The notes under the pieces are model-generated. The model did not search any database. It saw nothing but the letters and a program-made list of their open reading frames with translations, and was not told the DNA's origin. Made by a program: the position numbers and the translations under genes. A stretch of 61,176 nt of DNA, filler included, from an uncultured bacterium (GTDB lineage: Bacteria > CAYJOG01), in NCBI GenBank assembly GCA_964371695.1. It is 6 parts of 6 records of this genome, joined end to end, with 100 filler letters (N's around TTAATTAATTAA, not from the genome) between each part and the next. Parts side by side here need not be neighbours in the genome. Positions count along the whole stretch, not along the records: positions 1 to 10,520 come from CAYJOG010000059.1; 5 more parts are not named here. One strand, given 5' to 3'. Position 1 is the first letter of the stretch. Every line of letters begins with the position of its first letter. Below, piece after piece: positions 1 to 10,520 of this stretch.

Positions 1-1
1 G

Positions 2-427
2 ACATGGGTAGTAGACGCCAGCGTGGCCATGAAATGGTTTGTTCAGGAGGTTGATTCTGACAATGCCTTGGCTTTGCTTGATCAGGTTGGCCCCCTGGCA
101 GCCCCGGACCTTTTGCTTGCAGAAGTTTTGAATGGCCTGTGGCGCTTGAAACGCAAGGGAAAAATCACACTGCTGGAGCCCGAAAATATTTTGCGCACCC
201 TGCGTGGAAGCATTGGGCATTGGCGTGGACTCCATGAACTGGCCGATCAGGCCGCCGCGATTTCCGCCCTGCTGGATCATCCTGTTTATGACTGTTTTTA
301 CCTGGCCCTGGCCCAGAACGAAGGAATACAGTTGATCACAGCGGATATGCGCCTGCTGGAACGGCTTCAGGAAACCCGTCTCGCCAATTTGGCCGTTGAC
401 CTTGGCAAGTGGAGACCAGCCGAATAA
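2..427 (+). CDS. vapC: PIN-domain (VapC-type) toxin/ribonuclease, 5'-partial
   Basis: Frame is open to the window edge and reads TWVVDASVAMKWF; also has E-x-x-N and HPVYDCFYLALA...LITAD PIN motifs. Confidence 0.85.
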   Translation, partial: TWVVDASVAMKWFVQEVDSDNALALLDQVGPLAAPDLLLAEVLNGLWRLKRKGKITLLEPENILRTLRGSIGHWRGLHELADQAAAISALLDHPVYDCFYLALAQNEGIQLITADMRLLERLQETRLANLAVDLGKWRPAE

Positions 428-473
428 TGGCAAGGAGTTGGTCAAGCCCCCTTTATTTCGCACCCGGTTTGTC

Positions 474-501
474 TTGAACCCCCACAGGGCCACCCTAGAA
501 T
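474..501 (+). promoter_or_regulatory. putative sigma70 promoter of ppdK
   Basis: TTGAAC (474-479), 16-nt spacer, TAGAAT (496-501). Confidence 0.45.
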
Positions 502-570
502 GGCCCCATGGCAAAAGCCCCTGGGGGTTTTCTGCCGTTTGCCCACCACCCGTGTTCAAGGAGCGCCTGC

Positions 571-3309
571 ATGGCCAAATCCGCCAAACCCGCCAAACCT
601 GTTTCCACCTCTGGCAAAACCAGCCAGTGGGTCTATTTTTTTGGCGGCTGCAAGGCAGATGGCACGGGCGGAATGAAAGACCTGTTGGGCGGCAAGGGGG
701 CCGGACTGGCCGAAATGAGCAAGGCCGGTGTGCCCGTGCCGCCGGGTTTCACCATCACCACCGAGGTGTGCAACCGTTATTACAGCGACGGCCCCAAGGT
801 GGTAGATCAGGTTTTCCCCATGGCGCTCGCGGCCATGGCCAGGGTGGAAAAACTCATGGGGCGCAAATTCGGCGACCCAGCCAATCCCCTGCTGGTGAGC
901 GTGCGCAGCGGGGCCAAGTTTTCCATGCCCGGCATGATGGACACTATTTTGAACCTGGGGCTGAACGACGAAACGGTGCAGGGGCTGATCAAGGTCTCCA
1001 ATAACCCCGTATTCGGCTGGGACTGTTACCGCCGGTTCATCCAGATGTTCAGCAACGTGGTGCTGGAGATTGACCACCATCACTTCGAGCACGAGCTCAA
1101 CAAACTCAAACAGAAGCAGGGATTCACCGCCGACAACGAACTGGGCGCGGCGGACTGGCAGAAGGTGGTGGGGCTTTACAAGGCTCTGGTGCGCAAAACC
1201 ATCAAAAAGGATTTCCCCCAGGACGCCCGCGAGCAGTTGCGCCTCGCCGTCACCGCTGTTTTCAAAAGCTGGAACAACGACCGTGCGCTCATCTACCGCC
1301 GCATGAACGACATTCCCCACGACCTGGGCACCGCCGTGAACGTGCAGGCCATGGTGTTTGGCAACCTGAACGACAAAAGCGGCACCGGCGTGGGCTTCAC
1401 CCGCGACCCGGCCACCGGCGAAAAGGTGTTCTACGGCGAGTTTCTCATCAAGGCCCAGGGCGAAGACGTGGTGGCGGGCATTCGCACTGCCGAGCCCATC
1501 GCCAAACTCAAAACCGTGTTGCCTCAAGCCTATAAACAGCTTCAGGACATCACCACGCGCCTGGAAAAACATTACCGCGACCTTCAGGACTTCGAGTTCA
1601 CCATTGAAGACGGCCGCCTGTTCATGCTGCAAACCCGCAACGGCAAACGCACCGGCTTTGCCGCCATCAAGGCTGCCGTGGACATGGTGAGCGAAAAACT
1701 CATCGACAAAAAAGAAGCCATCCGCCGCATGGAGCCGCAGTTTCTGGATCAGTTGCTGCACCCGGTGTTTGACCCGCAATCCCGCAAGTCCCACACCGTG
1801 CTGGCCCGCGGCCTGCCCGCCAGCCCCGGCGCGGCCAGTGGCCACATCGTGTTCACCAGCGCCGAAGCGGTGAAGTGGAAACACCACAAAAAAGACGTGA
1901 TCCTGGTGCGGCAAGAGACCTCGCCCGATGACATTGAGGGCATGTATGCCGCCAAGGGCGTGCTCACCCTCACCGGCGGCATGACCAGCCACGCCGCCGT
2001 GGTGGGCCGCCAGATGGGCCTGCCAAGCGTGGTGGGTTGCGGCTCGGCGCGCCTGGATGAAAAAAAGAAACTGCTGATGGTGGGGGGCCAGACCCTGAAA
2101 GAAGGCGAGTGGCTTTCCATTGACGGCACCACGGGCGAGGTGCTGGCGGGCCACGTGCGCACCATTCCCAGCGAAGTGGTGCAGGTGGTGATGGGCAAAC
2201 TCAAACCCAGCCAGAGCGCCCTCTATCAGCAGTTCAACCAGATCATGTTGTGGGCTGATGAAATCAGACGGCTGAAGGTGCGCACCAACGCCGACACGCC
2301 CGAAGACGCCGCCCTGGCGGTGGCCTTTGGGGCCGAGGGCATTGGCCTGTGCCGCACCGAGCACATGTTTTTTGACCCGGTGCGGGTGCCCATCATGCAG
2401 GCCATGATCCTGGCCGAGAGCCGCGAAGACCGCGAAAAATTCCTGGCCAAGCTGGAGCCGATGCAGGAAGACGATTTTCTGGGCATCTTCAAGGCCATGG
2501 ATGGTCGCCCCGTCACCATTCGCCTGTTGGACCCGCCCCTGCACGAGTTTCTGCCCAAACGCGAAGAACTGATGCTGGAAATCCAGCGCCTGGAACTGAA
2601 AGGCGCCAGTGAGGCCAGCCTGAAAAAGAAAAAACGCCTGCTGGACCGCGTGCAGCAACTGCACGAGTTCAACCCCATGCTGGGTCTGCGGGGCTGCCGC
2701 CTGAGCCTGCTCATGCCAGAAATCACAGAGATGCAGGTGAAGGCCATCCTGGGCGCGGCCATCCGCCTGGAGAAACAGGGCAAAAAAGTGGTCCCCGAAA
2801 TCATGGTGCCCCTCACCGGCCACGTGAACGAAATGAAAGAGATGAAAAAACTCATTGACGGCGCGGCCAAAGAATCTTTTGAACGCACGGGACAGAAAGT
2901 GCGTTATCTGGTGGGCACGATGATCGAGATTCCCCGCGCCGCCATCACCGCCCACGAACTGGCGCATTACGCCGAGTTTTTCAGTTTTGGCACCAACGAT
3001 CTGACCCAGATGACGTTTGGGTTCAGCCGTGATGACGCAGGCAAGATCATTCGCCACTACACAGACAACGACATCTTTCGCCACGATCCCTTTGAAACCA
3101 TTGACCAGGATGGCGTGGGCGAGTTCATTCGCATCGCCCGCGACAAGGGCAAATCCACCCGCAAAAACCTCAAGCTGGGTATTTGCGGCGAACACGGCGG
3201 CGAAGACAAAAGCGTGGCTTTTTGTCACCGTGCGGGGCTGGATTATGTGAGCTGTTCACCCTATCGCGTGCCCCTGGCGCGCCTTTCCGCCGCCAGGGCG
3301 GCGCTCTGA
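571..3309 (+). CDS. ppdK: pyruvate, phosphate dikinase
   Basis: LGGKGAGLAEM, LVSVRSGA, GGMTSHAAVV (phospho-His), GLCRTEHMF, FSFGTNDLTQ, GICGEHGG; AAGGAG RBS before ATG 571 (in-frame ATG also at 508). Confidence 0.97.
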   Translation: MAKSAKPAKPVSTSGKTSQWVYFFGGCKADGTGGMKDLLGGKGAGLAEMSKAGVPVPPGFTITTEVCNRYYSDGPKVVDQVFPMALAAMARVEKLMGRKFGDPANPLLVSVRSGAKFSMPGMMDTILNLGLNDETVQGLIKVSNNPVFGWDCYRRFIQMFSNVVLEIDHHHFEHELNKLKQKQGFTADNELGAADWQKVVGLYKALVRKTIKKDFPQDAREQLRLAVTAVFKSWNNDRALIYRRMNDIPHDLGTAVNVQAMVFGNLNDKSGTGVGFTRDPATGEKVFYGEFLIKAQGEDVVAGIRTAEPIAKLKTVLPQAYKQLQDITTRLEKHYRDLQDFEFTIEDGRLFMLQTRNGKRTGFAAIKAAVDMVSEKLIDKKEAIRRMEPQFLDQLLHPVFDPQSRKSHTVLARGLPASPGAASGHIVFTSAEAVKWKHHKKDVILVRQETSPDDIEGMYAAKGVLTLTGGMTSHAAVVGRQMGLPSVVGCGSARLDEKKKLLMVGGQTLKEGEWLSIDGTTGEVLAGHVRTIPSEVVQVVMGKLKPSQSALYQQFNQIMLWADEIRRLKVRTNADTPEDAALAVAFGAEGIGLCRTEHMFFDPVRVPIMQAMILAESREDREKFLAKLEPMQEDDFLGIFKAMDGRPVTIRLLDPPLHEFLPKREELMLEIQRLELKGASEASLKKKKRLLDRVQQLHEFNPMLGLRGCRLSLLMPEITEMQVKAILGAAIRLEKQGKKVVPEIMVPLTGHVNEMKEMKKLIDGAAKESFERTGQKVRYLVGTMIEIPRAAITAHELAHYAEFFSFGTNDLTQMTFGFSRDDAGKIIRHYTDNDIFRHDPFETIDQDGVGEFIRIARDKGKSTRKNLKLGICGEHGGEDKSVAFCHRAGLDYVSCSPYRVPLARLSAARAAL

Positions 3310-3334
3310 GCCTGAGGAGGCCGCTGCAAATTAC

Positions 3335-5935
3335 ATGTCCCAACCCACTTCCCCATCGGCTTCTCCTAAACCTTCTGCCAAACGGGAATCCAAAACCTCC
3401 CGGCAGGGACAGAAAAGCCGGTGTGGGGAAGGGGAGGAGGCCGCTTCTTATTGTGTTCCCCTGGCCCAGGCTCCGCTGCAAACCGGGGCGCACGCCTGCT
3501 GGCTGGGGTCTCTGCTCGAGGCGGGTTTTGACGTGCGACCCGGATTTGTGGTGTTGCCCAAGGTGTTTGAGGAATACCAGTTATTGGGCCGACTGGCCGA
3601 AGACGCCACACAAGCCATCGCAGATTCCCTCAAGGCCATCACACCCAAAAACGGTCAAAAATCCGCGCCGCAAAAATCAGAAGGGCTTTCTTGCAATGGC
3701 CTGATTTTGAGCGTGTCGGTAGATGCCGTCATGCCCGATACCCTCAGCCCGCTCTGGGCCATTGGCGCGTCAGACAGCGCCGTGGGCAAGCGGGTGATGG
3801 AAACCCTCTGGGCCTATCTGAAAAGGGAAGGGGAGGGGGAACTCCCCTGTGCCCGAACCGTTGAGGAAGCATTGCTGCAGGGCGTGTCCCTGGTGTATGG
3901 CTGGTGGGAATCTGAAGTGATGGTGGGCCTGCGGCAAGTCCAGAATCTGCCCCGCAACCTGCCCATCAGTGTGGTGGTGCAGAGTGCGCCTTTCCGGCCC
4001 GAAGACGAAGGCGTGTTCGCCCTGCGCCTCACCTCACGGCATCCTTATACCGGCGAGGCAAAACTCTCTGGCGTGGTTTATGCGGGCGCGGTGGGAGACG
4101 ACCCCATCTATCACGACGGGGCAGGGGAAACATGGGACGAAACAACGCTGCTGAGCGGCCAGGGCCGCGCCGAACTGGCGGTGTTGTGCCGGGGAATCGA
4201 AAAACACATGCGCGAGATGGTTGATATTTCTCTGGCTCAGGGGCCAGACGGAAAAGTCTGGATCACCCGTGTGCAACCGGGCACCGGCACGGTAGAGGCC
4301 ACCGTGCGCATCGCCATGGACCTTTACACCGAGGGCATTTTGCCTGCCGAAGACGCCATCATGCGGGTGCGCCCCGCAGACCTGGAACAGGCCCTGCGCA
4401 GCCGTCTGACCGCCGCCATGAAAAGCCACCAGTTGGCGCGGGGCAAGGCGCTCACCAGCGGCTGGGTGCGCGGCGCGCTGGCCTTTGACCCAGACGACGT
4501 GCCGCGCCTGCGCGAAGAAACGGGCAAACAGGTGGTGTTGTGTGTAGACCGTCTTGGCCCCATGCGACGCGAAATGCTTTTTGGCGTAGACGCGGTGCTG
4601 TGTCTGGAAAAAAGCGTGCCGCCGCAGGTGATGAGCGTGTTTCTGGCCCGCAACACACCGTGTCTGTTTGGCCTGGAACCTGCAACGATTCTCGACAAAT
4701 CCCGTCTGAACGCAGGTGGCAAGGTGCTGGGCCGGGGCGATCTGGTGATGATCGACGCCGACAACGGCGTGCTCTATGACGGCCAGACCGCACCCGGAGA
4801 AACCACGCTGCCCGAAGAGTTCCGCACTCTCACCAAACTCACCGATCAGGTGGGCGGGGTGGGGGTGCGGGCCAATGTGGCCACACCGCAGGAGGCCGCC
4901 CTGGCGCGGAACCTGGGGGCCCAGGGCATCGGCCTGTTGCGCACCGAGCACCTGTTCCGCACCGACCGGCGCAAAGACGTGATGGCCCAGCTCATCCTGG
5001 CCAGCAATCCCGCCCAGCGCAGAGAGGCCCTGGCCGACCTGCTGCCCATCCAGCGCCACGATTTCCGCAACCTGTTTCAGGAGATGCAGGGCCTGCCCAT
5101 TACCATCCGGTTGCTGGACCCGCCGCTTTATCACTACCTGCCCACCTACGAAGACCTTTTGCGCGAAATGAACGAAGCCCGCATGAAGGGCGACTTCAGC
5201 CTGCCCGACGAAAAAGAACAACTGCTGCGGAAGCTTTTTGAACTGAAGGAACAAAACCCCATGCTGGGCCTGCGGGGCTGTCGCATCGGCATTCTTTACC
5301 CCGAAATCTATGAGATTCAGGTGAAAGCCGTGTTTGAGGCGACCATTGACCTTCTGGAGGAAGGAAAGATTATACGACCCGAAATCCTGGTGCCGTTTGT
5401 GGACCACACCAACGAGGTCAAAACCCTGGCCCACGCCATGGAGCAGGCAGCCCGCGAGGTGATGCGGCGGCGCAAACGCGAGGTGCCGTTTGTCTTCGGC
5501 ATCATGATCGAAACCCCGCGCTCGGTGATGGTGGCGGCGGACCTGGCGCAATACGTGGATTTCTTCAGCATCGGCTCGAACGACCTGACCCAGACCGCCT
5601 ATGGCATGTGCCGTGAAGACGCCGAAGGCCGTTTTCTGTTCACCTACATCGACCGCGGCATTTTCGAGAAAAACCCCTTTGAGGTACTGGACCGCGACGG
5701 CGTGGGACGGCTGATCACCCTGGCGATTCAGGAAGGCCGCCAGACCCATGGCAAGCTGGTGGTGGGTTTTTCCGGCGCCCAGGCGACGCACCCGGAGACG
5801 GTGCGCTTTGCACTGCTCAACGGCATCAACTATTTGAGCTGCCCGGTGGCCCACCTGCCGGTGGTGAAGCTGCTGGTGGCTCAGGAAGTGCTGCGGGCCA
5901 CCAACCCCGTGAAATTCCGTCGCGGCCAGGAGTGA
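3335..5935 (+). CDS. PPDK-like protein with degenerate ATP-grasp and His domains and a conserved PEP/pyruvate-binding barrel (probable pseudoenzyme)
   Basis: Colinear with ppdK (GLLRTEHLF, TIRLLDPPL, NPMLGLRGCR, MIETPR, SIGSNDLTQ) but has no TSH motif and GICGEH is replaced by GFSGAQ. Confidence 0.85.
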   Translation: MSQPTSPSASPKPSAKRESKTSRQGQKSRCGEGEEAASYCVPLAQAPLQTGAHACWLGSLLEAGFDVRPGFVVLPKVFEEYQLLGRLAEDATQAIADSLKAITPKNGQKSAPQKSEGLSCNGLILSVSVDAVMPDTLSPLWAIGASDSAVGKRVMETLWAYLKREGEGELPCARTVEEALLQGVSLVYGWWESEVMVGLRQVQNLPRNLPISVVVQSAPFRPEDEGVFALRLTSRHPYTGEAKLSGVVYAGAVGDDPIYHDGAGETWDETTLLSGQGRAELAVLCRGIEKHMREMVDISLAQGPDGKVWITRVQPGTGTVEATVRIAMDLYTEGILPAEDAIMRVRPADLEQALRSRLTAAMKSHQLARGKALTSGWVRGALAFDPDDVPRLREETGKQVVLCVDRLGPMRREMLFGVDAVLCLEKSVPPQVMSVFLARNTPCLFGLEPATILDKSRLNAGGKVLGRGDLVMIDADNGVLYDGQTAPGETTLPEEFRTLTKLTDQVGGVGVRANVATPQEAALARNLGAQGIGLLRTEHLFRTDRRKDVMAQLILASNPAQRREALADLLPIQRHDFRNLFQEMQGLPITIRLLDPPLYHYLPTYEDLLREMNEARMKGDFSLPDEKEQLLRKLFELKEQNPMLGLRGCRIGILYPEIYEIQVKAVFEATIDLLEEGKIIRPEILVPFVDHTNEVKTLAHAMEQAAREVMRRRKREVPFVFGIMIETPRSVMVAADLAQYVDFFSIGSNDLTQTAYGMCREDAEGRFLFTYIDRGIFEKNPFEVLDRDGVGRLITLAIQEGRQTHGKLVVGFSGAQATHPETVRFALLNGINYLSCPVAHLPVVKLLVAQEVLRATNPVKFRRGQE

Positions 5936-5949
5936 CACCCTCATCATTT

Positions 5950-5998
5950 CCCTCGCCCCTTTATGGGGAGAGGGTGGCGCAAAGCGCCGGGTGAGGGG
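5950..5998. repeat. REP-like palindromic repeat family A (CCCCTCACCC...CCCTCTCCC...GGGAGAGGG)
   Basis: Two-hairpin unit; other copies near 14452, 23126, 28574, 28761, 51362, 53961, 58748, 58913, 58982, 59202, 59319, 61136. Confidence 0.85.
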
Positions 5999-6180
5999 TT
6001 GGACATAAGCCACAAAGTCTTTATCCCTCATATCCCATGCCCATGGCTATCGAAGCTGGCCGCAGGAAGAGCGGGCGTAACTGCAGGAGGGCAAAACCAC
6101 CCCCGACTTCGCGTCGCATAATGATAATTATGTAATCATGTAATCGCGCGACCGCGCCCCTGCGTGATACAATTCAGCTC

Positions 6181-6378
6181 ATGAAAGTTGCAAGCAAAAT
6201 ACATGAAGAGCGTAAGGAGCACACGGAGAGCTTTCACTTGACGAATACGGACGTGGAGGCGCTGAACCGAGGTGCTGTAAGCTTTGAAGCTGGCCGTGTG
6301 AAACCTTGGGAGGAAGTCAAAGCCAACCTGAGAGCCAAACTTGAGGATGCAAAAAAGAACTCTCACAGTAACCGATGA
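6181..6378 (+). CDS. putative antitoxin (ParD-like C-terminus)
   Basis: 65 aa, overlaps the toxin start; EAGRVKPWEEVK resembles motifs of ParE/RelE-associated antitoxins. Confidence 0.6.
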   Translation: MKVASKIHEERKEHTESFHLTNTDVEALNRGAVSFEAGRVKPWEEVKANLRAKLEDAKKNSHSNR

Positions 6379-6688
6379 AGCCCAGGCCGATCTTGACGCG
6401 ATTTTGGAGTATTTATTAACCAACACCTCTGCCGCCAACGCTGCTCAGGTAATGGGTTGGATAGAACAAACCATTGAGTCTTTGTGTGAAGGCGCAGAGA
6501 GATATGCGATTATCGAAAGAGATGGTGTGGTGAAAATCATGAGAGGCGTTCGTGTGCATGCCTGCCGCCCTCTTACCGGTAAACGAGTGCGACCCACACG
6601 CTGGGTCGTTTATTTTCAACTGCATGAAACCACCGTAGGTGTAATCGGTGTACGCCACACCAGTCAAAAGCCTATTTGGGAAGAATAA
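6347..6688 (+). CDS. RelE/ParE family toxin
   Basis: TVTDEAQADLDAILEYL...IEQTIESL...WVVYF...VIGVRH pattern; locally lower GC. Confidence 0.8.
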   Translation: MQKRTLTVTDEAQADLDAILEYLLTNTSAANAAQVMGWIEQTIESLCEGAERYAIIERDGVVKIMRGVRVHACRPLTGKRVRPTRWVVYFQLHETTVGVIGVRHTSQKPIWEE

Positions 6689-6720
6689 TCTTTATCGGCC
6701 CCAACCCTTTTATACGCCCA

Positions 6721-7473
6721 TCACGCCCTGAACAACAAACCCTGACCCGTGGGCAGGCCCAGAATCTGCTGACCCATGCTGCAGGCAAAGTCATTCAGGG
6801 CCAGGTGCTGCACGTCGTGGCCCATAAAGCCGTAGTCGTCCATCACCACGCAGGCCCCGGGCGTCAGGCGGGGCCATAAAAATCGCAGCGCCGCCACCTC
6901 TGGATACGCCATGTTCATGTCCAGGTGCAGATAAGCCACCGGCTCGTCCGGCAGTTCGGCCAGCGTTGTCGGCACTTTGCCGCGTATCAGCTTCACGCCG
7001 GGTTTGTCCCTGAACAGCGCCTGCACAGGCTCCCATGAATCCGGGTAATGGCCATAACGCTCGGCCAGCCCCAGTTCCTTTTCTTTTTCCAGCATCTGAT
7101 CCACCGGCAGGCCACTGAAGGTGTCCAGCAGATACAACGTTTTGCCGCTGGTTTCAAAACCGGTGTAGTGATAAATCATCACCGCGCCGCCCCCCAGGTT
7201 CACGCCGCATTCCACAAAGTTGCCGGGCAGTTGCAGTGCGCGGCGGGCGGCCCAGCACCGCACCCAGGCCCGCCAGTGATTTTTGGCGTCGCCCCAACTG
7301 CCGGTGGCGCTGCCCATTTCCCAGGATTCAAGAAACAGCGGGTCCGCCAGAAAATCACTGGTGTGCCAGGTGACGAGGCCGTCAGCCATGAAGGTGGGTT
7401 CCAGCACCTGCCCTTCCTGATTTTGCGCATGATTGGCTTCGCCGGTGGTCACTTCAGTCTTCCTCCTGGGCAT
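6721..7473 (-). CDS. TylF/MycF-family O-methyltransferase
   Basis: GNFVECGV, YLLDTFSG, LHLDMN, VVMDDY motifs. Confidence 0.85.
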   Translation of the reverse strand: MPRRKTEVTTGEANHAQNQEGQVLEPTFMADGLVTWHTSDFLADPLFLESWEMGSATGSWGDAKNHWRAWVRCWAARRALQLPGNFVECGVNLGGGAVMIYHYTGFETSGKTLYLLDTFSGLPVDQMLEKEKELGLAERYGHYPDSWEPVQALFRDKPGVKLIRGKVPTTLAELPDEPVAYLHLDMNMAYPEVAALRFLWPRLTPGACVVMDDYGFMGHDVQHLALNDFACSMGQQILGLPTGQGLLFRA

Positions 7474-7586
7474 ATTGTTTGCGACGGTAAACCTTGCTGC
7501 TGATTTTCACCTTGGGGCGTTTGGACCGCAGCGCTTTTGAAAACACCACACCCGAACGGAATTTTTTGCCCCGACGTTTTTTCATG

Positions 7587-7760
7587 AGAACCTGTTTATA
7601 AAGTAGTCAAGAATCTTACAACAGGCTCTTGCAGGCCAGGGATGGCCTGCCCTGAAAACCGGAGGATTGAAAATTCGTAGGTTTTCGCCCCGTCGAGGGG
7701 ATTTATTCCCCGATGGCGGGGGGTTTATAAAGTCCAGGAGGGACTTTATAAACAGGCTCT
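7587..7760 (-). mobile_element. MITE-like structured element, copy 1
   Basis: 18-bp terminal inverted repeats AGA(A/G)CCTGTTTATAAAGT (7587-7604, 7743-7760); colinear homology with 55452-55636. Confidence 0.75.
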
Positions 7761-8374
7761 GAGGGCCGGGCCGCCTGATTTTTGTCGCGCCGCCAGGGCA
7801 GCCACGCGGCGAAATCGTGCCTGAGCCGGTGGCTGGCGCGCCGGGCCAGATAGATTCGCAGGCCCACCTTCACCACGGCCACGTCGCTCTGGCTCAGCAC
7901 CTGGGCCATGGCCTGGCTTACGTCCGGGTGTTGCTCGCGCCCCAACAGCGACAACATGAGCAGCGCGTGTTTGCGGCTCATGCGCCCCGCCAGACTTTTC
8001 ACCGCCACCACCCTCAGCCACGGGTTGTGGCTGGCCTGCAACCGCTCCAGGGCCTGGGCCACCGAGAGGGGCGGGGGCGGGGATATCCCCTGCCCTGCCC
8101 CATCTGCCGGAGACGTGGCGGCGAACAACGACGCCTGCATGGGGTGCGGCGTGGGCGTTGATTCTGTCACAACGGTTTTTTTCAGGGTCCGTTTGAGAAA
8201 ACGATGGCTTTCGAGAATTTCCCGGTAACGGGCCTGCACTGCGTCGCTGTCTCCGGCCACGTCGGGGTGACAGGTTTTGCTCAACTGCAAAAAAGCCTGA
8301 CGCGCCTGCTCCGCCCCCGCGTGGCCGGGCAGGCCCAGGGTTCTCAGCGCCGCCTGCACCGTGAGTTCCTCCAT
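7703..8374 (-). CDS. J-domain protein with a HEAT-like C-terminal region
   Basis: N-terminal J domain with HPD (KTCHPD); last ~19 codons lie inside the MITE-like element. Confidence 0.75.
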   Translation of the reverse strand: MEELTVQAALRTLGLPGHAGAEQARQAFLQLSKTCHPDVAGDSDAVQARYREILESHRFLKRTLKKTVVTESTPTPHPMQASLFAATSPADGAGQGISPPPPLSVAQALERLQASHNPWLRVVAVKSLAGRMSRKHALLMLSLLGREQHPDVSQAMAQVLSQSDVAVVKVGLRIYLARRASHRLRHDFAAWLPWRRDKNQAARPSEPVYKVPPGLYKPPAIGE

Positions 8375-8377
8375 GAC

Positions 8378-9964
8378 CTATTCCCACGCCACCAGAAAAA
8401 GTCCCTTGGGTGTGCGCTCCAGCACCACGCGGCGAATGGTGAGACGAATCAGCCCCCCCTCTTTGGGCAAAATCGCAAACTTCCCTGCCAGGTGTGCCGA
8501 CGCCCGCAGCGTGCGAGTTTTCATCACTGGCAGGCCCTCACGGTCCACCATATAAAGGCTCAGCGTGTCGGTTTTGACAGGGGCCTTGATTTGCAGCGGC
8601 GAGGGGGGAGACGCTTCAAAAATGGGCATTTTTTCGGCCTTTTGCAGCAGCAGCAGGTCTTTGAGCGCCGCGCCGGTGGCCCCCTGGCGCACCAACAGAT
8701 TTTTCATTTCGTTGCGCACAAAGGGCGCATTTTTGAATTCGTTTTTGAGGCGGATAAGCGACTTGCCGTCGCTGAGCAGCGACTGAAGACAAACCCCGTT
8801 TTTGTTGTGCAGGCAGGTGGTGAGTTTTTTAAGAAAGGCATTCACCTCGGCGGTGAGCAGTTCCTTGCCTTTTTCTTTGGACAGGGGAATCTCGCGCAGG
8901 CCCGGATTGTTTTTGGCCAGCAGCCCGGCGATTTCCCGCGTAGTGATTTTGTCAGACGGGCACTGGCTCTGTCCCACATGATGCACCGTGCGGGCGCCAT
9001 AAAAAAGCCGCGTGGAAGGGTCCAGAAAAAGATTTTTTTGCAGATAGTCCGCAGCGGCCTGAGCCTCTTGCAGTGCAGTGCCGCCTTTGAGCAACAAGGT
9101 GGTGATGGTGAGGCGGCACAGGTCGCTGGAAGGATGGTCGTAATAGGCCACGCGCACCGCCATCACCCGGCTGAAATCCGTTTCTGGAAAAAGGCGCTGA
9201 CCCAACCGCTGCGCCGCCAGCCCCACCTGCACAAACGGATTGCCCATGCCCGTGGGCGGACGACTGAGAGTGATGCCTCCCGGCAGATTGTGGCGCGGCA
9301 GGCTGCCCATGGCTTTTTCCATGGGAATCAGTGGCGACGCGGTGGTGGCCACCCCTTGCAGACGCGCCCTGAGGATTTCATACACGCCGTCCAGATAGGT
9401 TTTGGGGATTTCGTGCTGTGGTGTGCCGGGCATTTTTTCCCGGAACACAAAAAAGCCCTGGGGCCCCTGACGATAAACACGGGCATAGGCCGCCCCGCCC
9501 GATTTTTTCACCACCCGCAACACCTTGGGCCACTCCTTGCCATAGGCCACCACGTCGGCGGGTGTTTTGTCCTTGTAGTTCAGCAGGACATAACCAAACA
9601 GGCCCCGTTTTTCCTGATGGCTGTAAAAGGTCACCACGGCGTTGGCCAGCGTGGCGGGTTTCACGCCGGGGTAAAGGTTTTTGCTGTTGGCGTCCTGACT
9701 GAGGGGGTCGAGATAGATATAAGGATTGGGCAGGCTGGTTTTCCGGTCACAGTCCAGGTCTTTGAGTTTCAGGTTATTGCGTTTTTGCTGAAGGCATTTG
9801 GTTTTGTCCACCTTGGCCCCCAGCACAGCCAGATTCACGCCGGGCGGCAGATCCTGGGGGCCAAGAATCATGGCCTCCAGGTTCATGGGTTTGGCCATGA
9901 GCCGGGCGGGGAACAGCGCCAGCACCACACCCAGGCAAAAAAGCGCACGGCCCGTTTTTTTCAT
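8378..9964 (-). CDS. hypothetical exported protein
   Basis: 528-aa ORF with signal peptide MKKTGRALFCLGVVLALFPARLMA. Confidence 0.7.
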   Translation of the reverse strand: MKKTGRALFCLGVVLALFPARLMAKPMNLEAMILGPQDLPPGVNLAVLGAKVDKTKCLQQKRNNLKLKDLDCDRKTSLPNPYIYLDPLSQDANSKNLYPGVKPATLANAVVTFYSHQEKRGLFGYVLLNYKDKTPADVVAYGKEWPKVLRVVKKSGGAAYARVYRQGPQGFFVFREKMPGTPQHEIPKTYLDGVYEILRARLQGVATTASPLIPMEKAMGSLPRHNLPGGITLSRPPTGMGNPFVQVGLAAQRLGQRLFPETDFSRVMAVRVAYYDHPSSDLCRLTITTLLLKGGTALQEAQAAADYLQKNLFLDPSTRLFYGARTVHHVGQSQCPSDKITTREIAGLLAKNNPGLREIPLSKEKGKELLTAEVNAFLKKLTTCLHNKNGVCLQSLLSDGKSLIRLKNEFKNAPFVRNEMKNLLVRQGATGAALKDLLLLQKAEKMPIFEASPPSPLQIKAPVKTDTLSLYMVDREGLPVMKTRTLRASAHLAGKFAILPKEGGLIRLTIRRVVLERTPKGLFLVAWE

Positions 9965-10006
9965 GGCTGAATTGTAGGCGTTAGATTTTCAGATGTTGGA
10001 TACCTT

Positions 10007-10519
10007 TTAACCCTCAAGGGTTTCGGCAGCCCAGCGCAGCAGGCTTTCGGTGGTTTCCCAACCCACGCAGGCGTCGGTGACCGATACGCCGTATGTGAGT
10101 TTGGAAAGATCGCTGGTGAGTTTTTGCGCGCCTTCAAAAAGATGGCTTTCGAGCATCATGCCAATGAGGTCGCTGTTGCCCGCCTTGCGTTGCTCGATGA
10201 TGCTGCGCCAGGCGACTTCCTGTTTTTCGTGTTTTTTGCCAGAGTTGGCGTGGCTGCAATCCACCATCAGGGCCGGATTCATGCCCGCGCCCCGCACCAT
10301 GTCAGCGGCCTGTTTCACACTGCCGGGGTCGAAGTTGGACATCTCCCGCCCCCCCCGCAAAATAATGTGGCCATAGGCGTTGCCCCGCGTGTTCACCACA
10401 CAGGTGCGACCATCCGGATCCATGCCCAGAAAACTGTGGGGGTGGCGGGCGGCCTCCATGGCATCCACCGCGATTTGCAGGTTGCCTTCGGTGTTGTTTT
10501 TGAAGCCCACGGGCATGGA
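10007..10519 (-). CDS. class I DAHP synthase (AroF/G/H type), 5'-partial
   Basis: PVGFKN, HIILRGG, MVDCSHANS, GMMLESHL, YGVSVTDACVGW; truncated by the contig end. Confidence 0.93.
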   Translation of the reverse strand, partial: SMPVGFKNNTEGNLQIAVDAMEAARHPHSFLGMDPDGRTCVVNTRGNAYGHIILRGGREMSNFDPGSVKQAADMVRGAGMNPALMVDCSHANSGKKHEKQEVAWRSIIEQRKAGNSDLIGMMLESHLFEGAQKLTSDLSKLTYGVSVTDACVGWETTESLLRWAAETLEG

Positions 10520-10520
10520 C

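Follow-up and report, generated by a model that had tools for sequence, protein, structure and literature searches.

A probably repurposed, His-less copy of pyruvate, phosphate dikinase encoded next to ppdK in an uncultured bacterium

Here, we describe a probable dead copy of pyruvate, phosphate dikinase (PPDK), which is encoded directly downstream of a canonical ppdK gene in a 61,176-nucleotide window (the whole stretch of DNA that was analysed) from an uncultured bacterium (GTDB lineage Bacteria; CAYJOG01; assembly GCA_964371695.1). Positions 1-10520 of the window, on which the locus lies, represent one contig (C59, CAYJOG010000059.1) of a metagenome-assembled genome (MAG) that comprises 672 contigs and is 83% complete. 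Since its ATP site, its phospho-carrier histidine and its general-acid cysteine are all missing, the product of the second gene, hereafter referred to as the paralog, appears from its sequence to be a folded, full-length PPDK copy that can no longer run the dikinase reaction. Comparison with a close relative indicates that the gene is kept by purifying selection for something other than this reaction, and we regard the paralog as a dead copy of a well-known enzyme with a probably new role. Its most likely function, which we put forward tentatively, would be that of a co-transcribed, non-catalytic partner that binds phosphoenolpyruvate (PEP) or pyruvate and pairs with PPDK through the barrel domains of the two proteins.

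The gene pair is composed of the following elements:
571..3309, plus strand: ppdK, canonical pyruvate, phosphate dikinase of 912 aa (TIGR01828, Pfam, database gene call)
3310..3334, plus strand: intergenic spacer of 25 nt, with GAGGAGG at 3314-3320, 14 nt ahead of the paralog ATG
3335..3448, plus strand: paralog residues 1-38, a Ser/Pro/Lys-rich tail, predicted to be disordered and unconstrained (predicted local distance difference test, pLDDT, 34-37)
3449..4354, plus strand: paralog residues 39-340, remnant of the nucleotide-binding ATP-grasp domain, with substitutions at the five ATP-ligand positions (alignment, model)
4355..4804, plus strand: paralog residues 341-490, linker and homologue of the central swivel domain without the phospho-carrier His (alignments)
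4805..5935, plus strand: paralog residues 491-866 and stop codon, PEP/pyruvate-binding TIM barrel (PF02896 match, conserved columns)

Residues lost and kept in the paralog

A preliminary description of this DNA had placed an intact paralog of 866 aa 25 nt after ppdK, which was borne out by the list of open reading frames (ORFs) and by the translations: ppdK ends with a TGA at 3307-3309, and the paralog ORF runs through 866 unbroken codons on the same strand. The product of ppdK itself is a canonical enzyme, which reaches 1307.3 bits against TIGR01828 (cut-off 843.45), in which all three Pfam domains are detected, and which matches the PPDK chains of Clostridium symbiosum with 1035 bits and every catalytic residue present. 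Its closest database matches are MAG proteins of several phyla, which are at most 63% identical.

All of the catalytic-site substitutions that had been listed for the paralog were reproduced by BLASTP of the two proteins (237/731 identical positions, E 4e-119), i.e. from ppdK to the paralog GGKGAGL to GAHACWL, VSVRSG to LSVSVD, DFEF to DISL, MLQTRN to ITRVQP, GGMTSHAAV to KSVPPQVMS and GICGEH to GFSGAQ, and the motifs RTEH, IRLLDPP, LGLRGCR, MIETPR and SNDLTQ were confirmed as retained. A MAFFT alignment of 164 PPDK homologues and the local pairwise alignment agree on the retained motifs and on the substitutions from DFEF onward; in the N-terminal domain, MAFFT places the paralog differently (GGKGAGL vs GQKSVPL). 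The C. symbiosum residue numbering used in the preliminary description, which we follow here, was verified by aligning the neighbouring ppdK product to chain 1dik_A.

With respect to this numbering, the ATP-grasp ligands are replaced in the paralog throughout (K22 by H53, R92 by S128, E323 by S299, Q335 by R312 and R337 by Q314), where the replacements of K22 and R92 derive from a weak second BLAST match (28/103 identical positions, E 0.041). In the central domain, T453 is replaced by P429 and the phospho-carrier H455 by Q431. We looked specifically for an aligned phospho-His and found Gln431 at that column, with no histidine anywhere in the central domain (residues 366-482); the relative P0171 likewise has Gln at this position. 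In the barrel, the proton donor C831 is replaced by S813, and E833 and H834 by A815 and Q816. Across the 164 rows of the alignment, His is found in 154 and Cys in 157 at the respective columns. All of the PEP/Mg ligands are present in the paralog (R561 as R536, R617 as R592, D620 as D595, E745 as E726, N768 as N749 and D769 as D750).

In the profile searches, the paralog reaches 507.1 bits against TIGR01828 over residues 175-850, which is 336 bits under the cut-off of 843.45, and PF02896 is detected at residues 495-851 with 218.3 bits (gathering threshold 22.8); Pfam detects neither PPDK_N (PF01326) nor the mobile His domain (PF00391). A sub-threshold resemblance to HpcH/HpaI aldolases was also observed (E 0.0063, 16 bits vs a cut-off of 25).

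In the AlphaFold2 model of the paralog, which was based on a 102-row alignment, all three domains are folded (mean pLDDT 85.8, predicted template-modelling score 0.86), with pLDDT mostly at 90-98 in the barrel and disorder predicted only for residues 1-34, 107-120 and the last three. A Foldseek search against the PDB ranks full-length PPDKs first, with a template-modelling (TM) score of 0.74 to 1kbl and 1dik over a full-length alignment; the TM score to these two is higher than to the maize structures, which may reflect the predictor only. According to this prediction, the paralog is thus no fragment but resembles a PPDK in full, with all three of its domains.

The divergence from canonical PPDKs differs between the domains. 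The barrel of the paralog is 40% identical to the canonical rows (91 rows), whereas that of the neighbouring ppdK product reaches 50% (90 rows); the corresponding values for the paralog and the ppdK product, obtained from the same numbers of rows, are 23.5% vs 45% for the central domain and 23% vs 41.5% for the N-terminal domain. Among the columns with a conservation of 95% or more across the 91 canonical rows, the paralog keeps 49 of 62 in the barrel and 4 of 15 in the central domain and linkers, all of the latter being glycines; at a threshold of 80%, it keeps 92/120 in the barrel, 18/44 in the central domain and 21/41 in the N-terminal domain. The barrel positions that are not retained form a cluster around Cys831 and the C-terminal SCSPxRVP stretch. 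In solved PPDK structures, this cluster is located on the side where the phospho-His enters the pocket, so that the ligand-holding side of the paralog pocket would be intact and the phospho-His side remodelled.

Selection on the paralog

The 90% identity cluster of the paralog contains five members, and the same sequence is present on 6 contigs of up to 70 kb. The relative P0171 is about 91% identical and shares the same 866-aa frame; its 74 amino acid differences are distributed very unevenly, with 18/30 in residues 1-30, 20/90 in residues 31-120, 24/220 in residues 121-340, 4/150 in residues 341-490 and 8/376 in residues 491-866. In addition, a related version of the entire locus is present on Logan contigs of two groundwater runs from a different study (X5 and X6). 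Its 3232-nt contig, which is exactly as long as the contig recorded for P0171, was aligned to positions 3423-5933 and differs at 254 of 2511 nucleotides (10.1%); among the other pieces, ppdK is 5.4-9.2% different and the flanking genes are 9-14% different. The approximate ratio of non-synonymous to synonymous substitution rates (dN/dS) of the paralog is 0.095 overall; it is higher in residues 31-502 (0.17) and lower in residues 506-866, i.e. the barrel (0.025), where the split by domain is an approximation that combines the two contigs of X6 with the P0171 protein.

We then compared these differences with a neutral simulation, in which 254 random substitutions were introduced at the observed transition share in 5000 replicates. 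While 170 amino acid changes are expected under neutrality, 56 were observed, a number that none of the 5000 replicates reached or undercut; the replicates acquired a mean of 6.8 stop codons, and 8 of 5000 remained stop-free. Residues 31-120 change at the neutral rate (20 changes vs 18 expected), whereas the observed changes fall below expectation in residues 121-340 (24 vs 45), 341-490 (4 vs 30) and 491-866 (8 vs 76). Strong constraint is seen in the barrel and also, which was unexpected, in the central domain without its His, but not in the first subdomain. The earlier claim that the paralog is not decaying is therefore upheld by the frame, which is intact in two lineages whose DNA differs by about 10%, together with a rate of change far below neutral, and the claim of selective retention by a nearly invariant barrel and central domain next to residues 31-120, which evolve at about the neutral rate. 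The earlier interpretation is supported in this part; the PEP/pyruvate-sensing or heterodimerising regulatory subunit that it also suggested is a proposal. In a phylogenetic tree built from 102 rows, the paralog and its relative sit on a stem of 1.99 substitutions per site, as compared to a median terminal branch of 0.69. This pattern indicates a phase of fast remodelling and subsequent constraint.

Proposed role and competing explanations

Selection appears to protect three properties of the paralog, i.e. the PEP/pyruvate-Mg pocket, the barrel domain, which mediates dimerisation in PPDKs, and the remodelled, His-less central domain. According to the proposed mechanism, PPDK and the paralog would be produced from one transcript, and the paralog would bind PEP or pyruvate without catalysis, associate via its barrel domain with PPDK or with a second copy of itself, and in this way tune PPDK to the PEP/pyruvate level. 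In favour of this partnership, the two genes are separated by a same-strand spacer of just 25 nt, which carries a ribosome-binding site (RBS), and the terminator scan found no terminator-like site between them. No RNA run was among the sequencing runs listed as carrying the sequence. According to PMC5556012, the two PEP-binding domains make up the interface of the PPDK dimer, and activity is confined to the dimeric form; the same text treats the reason why PPDK must be a dimer as an open question. A more specific version, which we consider possible but doubtful, is that of a "PPDK prozyme", in which PPDK and the paralog would join via the barrels to give a heterodimer, either obligate or conditional, and the intact but non-reactive PEP/pyruvate pocket and the locked central domain of the paralog would serve as an allosteric sensor that sets the rate or direction of the live subunit.

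Non-catalytic paralog subunits are well established for other enzymes, e.g. GlgD with GlgC, HisZ with HisG, and the trypanosomatid AdoMetDC/DHS prozymes. The present case resembles these in that an apparently dead paralog is encoded beside the gene of the live enzyme and is under purifying selection (dN/dS about 0.1, from one pair); it differs in that a complex with the active enzyme belongs to those systems, whereas the paralog is known here from its sequence and predicted fold. Compared with PPDK itself (EC 2.7.9.1; C. symbiosum 1KBL/1DIK, maize 1VBG, Flaveria 5JVJ), the paralog has the same length, the same predicted three-domain fold, 32-36% identity and the complete set of barrel ligands named above, but lacks K22, R92, E323, Q335, R337, T453, H455, C831, E833 and H834, remains under the family cut-off and has a PPDK_N and a mobile His domain that Pfam does not recognise. 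The barrel also resembles the PEP-binding domain of Enzyme I and PEP synthase (EIC; 2XZ7, 2BG5, 8A8E), which shares the PEP-Mg-binding, oligomerising barrel fold (TMt 0.73-0.80 for the barrel part); these structures, however, come from parts of active enzymes in which the Cys is retained, whereas the barrel of the paralog is part of a full-length protein with two dead but retained domains.

PPDK is a textbook swivelling-domain enzyme, and a selected copy that is apparently dead in all three domains and has kept the pocket and the dimerisation domain would provide a natural means of studying how one subunit contributes to the other. To our knowledge, the sole known bacterial PPDK regulator is the DUF299 kinase/phosphatase, which was not found in this genome (83% complete). 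If the paralog is indeed a regulatory partner, PPDK would join the enzymes that are controlled by dead paralogs, and a PPDK prozyme would be the first known regulatory subunit of any PEP-utilising dikinase. In the full-text literature searched, whose coverage excludes subscription journals, we found no paper on a PPDK pseudoenzyme or a His-less PPDK paralog, and no dead-paralog subunit described for any PEP-utilising dikinase.

The paralog has a very narrow distribution. An exhaustive HMMER search of 1.84 billion representative proteins revealed no ortholog outside its own cluster; there were 15273 hits at E ≤ 0.001, of which the best non-self hit reached 388 bits and 35% identity, as compared to a self score of 1955. 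A word-index search gave 18 matches among 7997 scored candidates, with more than 39% identity only within the paralog's own cluster, and scans of metagenome and genome contigs yielded one locus each, which were ordinary PPDK-like fragments with 39% identity. We also searched 300 comparison genomes, which are related to this genome at the domain level only, for further tandem arrangements. Two TIGR01828 matches at E ≤ 1e-100 were present in 26 of them, 15 of which were inspected and 11 left out; a same-strand pair of ppdK and a dead paralog was not found among these 15, and in 10 of the 15 the two matches were one gene reported in two pieces. The term "new regulatory module", which had been put forward as a candidate description of the gene pair, hence overstates its reach, since we found no ortholog beyond one relative of about 91% identity and no tandem in the inspected genomes.

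Several observations weigh against a partnership with PPDK. The gene is known from one lineage and the one relative just mentioned, the selection estimate derives from this single orthologue pair and combines the X5/X6 nucleotide counts indirectly with the amino acid differences of P0171, and the listed contigs of the relative do not span the junction between ppdK and the paralog. The distance of 14 nt between the RBS and the ATG of the paralog is long. In the 102-row tree, the paralog branches neither with the neighbouring ppdK product nor with the other degenerate rows, and it is as far from its neighbour (34% identity, 374 bits) as from any PPDK (best 388 bits); on so long a branch, FastTree cannot separate local duplication from transfer as its origin. 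Moreover, a matching dimer interface is not guaranteed, because the two barrels are only 43% identical. Finally, a dimerising regulator would have no obvious need for the full Mg/PEP set at a dN/dS of 0.025, which would fit an enzyme equally well.

This last point leads to the first competing explanation, which we consider rather unlikely, namely that the paralog is a neofunctionalised enzyme. With Ser813 in place of Cys831 and no need for a phospho-His, its barrel alone would act on PEP, pyruvate or a related acid (2-oxo or enol) in a new reaction that depends on Mg, and the other domains would provide a scaffold or lid. This explanation would account for the retention of all metal and PEP ligands in a barrel with so low a dN/dS (8/376 changes) and for the weak, sub-threshold resemblance to the HpcH/HpaI aldolases, which belong to the pyruvate-Mg barrel clan. 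It is also consistent with the recurrence of the Cys-to-Ser replacement in PPDK paralogs that keep the His, i.e. P0063 and L024, of which the latter is encoded next to a canonical ppdK. We found, however, no precedent in the literature searched, E833 and H834 beside the Cys are lost as well, and the constraint on the His-less central domain (4/150) equals that on the barrel, although an enzyme working through its barrel only would have no need of it.

Alternatively, and with a still lower probability, the paralog could function on its own, as a homodimeric PEP/pyruvate sensor or scaffold whose target is not PPDK, so that the adjacency to ppdK would be a relic of duplication or insertion. The retained ligand pocket and dimerisation domain would be compatible with such a function, as would the position of the paralog in the tree, where it is not sister to the neighbouring ppdK product, the mobile-looking toxin-antitoxin genes that flank the locus, and a downstream flank that differs in the relative. 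The close same-strand spacing without a terminator-like site argues against it, and the locus offers no other candidate partner gene.

It is very improbable that the paralog is a recent duplicate turning into a functionless pseudogene. The loss of catalytic residues from each of the three domains, the roughly neutral rate of change in residues 1-120 and the very narrow distribution are as would be expected from decay, but both lineages, which are 10% apart, have an unbroken frame of 866 codons, the neutral simulation did not reproduce so few amino acid changes and rarely left the frame free of stops, the same sequence recurs on 6 contigs, and the long stem branch means that the copy is old rather than recent. 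That it is a still-active dikinase using other residues is hardly conceivable despite the full three-domain fold predicted for it, given a central domain without any His, the replacement of five ATP-site residues and Cys831, and a TIGR01828 score far under the cut-off.

Other PPDK-like genes and the surroundings of the locus

Besides the paralog, six other representatives without the phospho-His are present among the 164 aligned homologues, and the tree requires at least three independent His losses. Like the paralog, these are full-length PPDK homologues in which the phospho-carrier His is replaced; they differ in that they are about 30-33% identical to the paralog and do not group with it, and in that most of them retain more of the ATP site or the Cys. 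One case is a 108-member cluster (P0099/P0297) named "pyruvate, phosphate dikinase [Eubacterium pyruvativorans]", in which the His is replaced by Tyr and R337 by Ala, and whose sister in the tree, P0135, is canonical. Based on these replacements, the E. pyruvativorans protein is probably another non-dikinase PPDK paralog. A Promethearchaeota MAG encodes a "putative PEP-binding protein", in which both the His and the Cys are replaced by Ser. Three His-less metagenome sequences (P0030, P0054 and P0104) group together beside canonical rows with a support of 89; the ATP-site motifs of P0054 and P0104 are also degenerate, and P0054 has a dead Cys motif in addition. These three, each of which is a singleton cluster and could thus reflect an error, may represent a small family of their own among the dead PPDK copies. 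Dead PPDK copies thus seem to have arisen independently in other bacteria and archaea. His-less PPDK-like genes, one of them in a cultured bacterium, are annotated plainly as "pyruvate, phosphate dikinase" and should not count as PPDK activity in annotation or metabolic reconstruction. The neighbours of the paralog in the ESM Atlas include PPDK-family clusters with a recognisable PPDK_N in just 11-44% of their members.

The inspected comparison genomes contain a number of further second copies. In G296 (contig C88), L024 (48022-50649, minus strand) and L021 (51265-53976, plus strand) are adjacent, divergently oriented full-length PPDKs, both over the TIGR01828 cut-off; L024 keeps the His (GNMSGH) and has a Cys831-to-Ser replacement (GLSGEH) as well as CRTEA. 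G041 encodes an unlinked PPDK-like copy (L026, C31:28126-30783, minus strand), which scores 518 bits, under the cut-off, and which keeps the ATP-grasp motifs and the His, while the barrel PEP/Mg residues are replaced (FRTDL, IRLCKHT, VVEISG, RSDKLTT, LVAGTH). To judge from these motifs, L026 may be a dikinase with a different acceptor. G209, which belongs to the same genus as G041, also has two TIGR01828 matches. G140 and G280 each carry an unlinked second copy with its catalytic motifs kept, and in G240 a frame of 1125 aa (L025, C6:25582-27138) matches positions 2-514 of the PPDK model only, i.e. it comprises the ATP-grasp and the His domain but no barrel.

Two further features lie outside the coding sequences of the gene pair:
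474..501, plus strand: sigma-70-like promoter candidate, TTGAAC, 16-nt spacer, TAGAAT (consensus scan, 9/12 positions)
5950..5999 (to 6000), strand not assigned: G+C-rich imperfect hairpin or repeat right after the paralog stop, possibly the end of the transcription unit (sequence)

The promoter candidate is weak evidence, as three such sites were found in the region vs 1.9 expected by chance. The ppdK start at 571 is that of the database gene call and is preceded by AAGGAG 8 nt ahead of the ATG; an in-frame ATG further upstream, at 508, would give a protein of 933 aa. For the paralog, there is no alternative in-frame ATG, GTG or TTG start before codon 67.

Upstream of the gene pair, a PIN-domain (VapC-like) ORF is located at 23-427 on the plus strand. 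Downstream, a ParE-family toxin follows an overlapping ORF of 65 aa (6341-6688 and 6181-6378, respectively, both on the plus strand); the short ORF has no Pfam match and is likely to encode the antitoxin. The pair thus looks flanked on both sides by toxin-antitoxin genes, which gives the locus a mobile appearance, and the downstream flank is variable, since the contig of the relative (X6) fails to align beyond 5933. A fragment of a DAHP synthase, which is a PEP-using enzyme, lies at the contig end (10007-10516, minus strand), 4 kb off and on the opposite strand, and nothing suggests a functional link to the gene pair. Pyruvate kinase is present in this genome.

Scans of the contig for tRNAs and Rfam families gave no matches, and the hairpin at 5950-5999 was missed by the terminator scan, Rfam and ARAGORN. 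The summed contig depth in the bin 5951-6300 amounts to 309, 312, 74 and 51 in four runs, as compared to 23, 24, 11 and 8 in the bin before it (5601-5950) and 3, 0, 4 and 2.5 in the one after it. Because this depth far exceeds that of both flanking bins, the hairpin or repeat is likely to be a sequence common to many loci or organisms.

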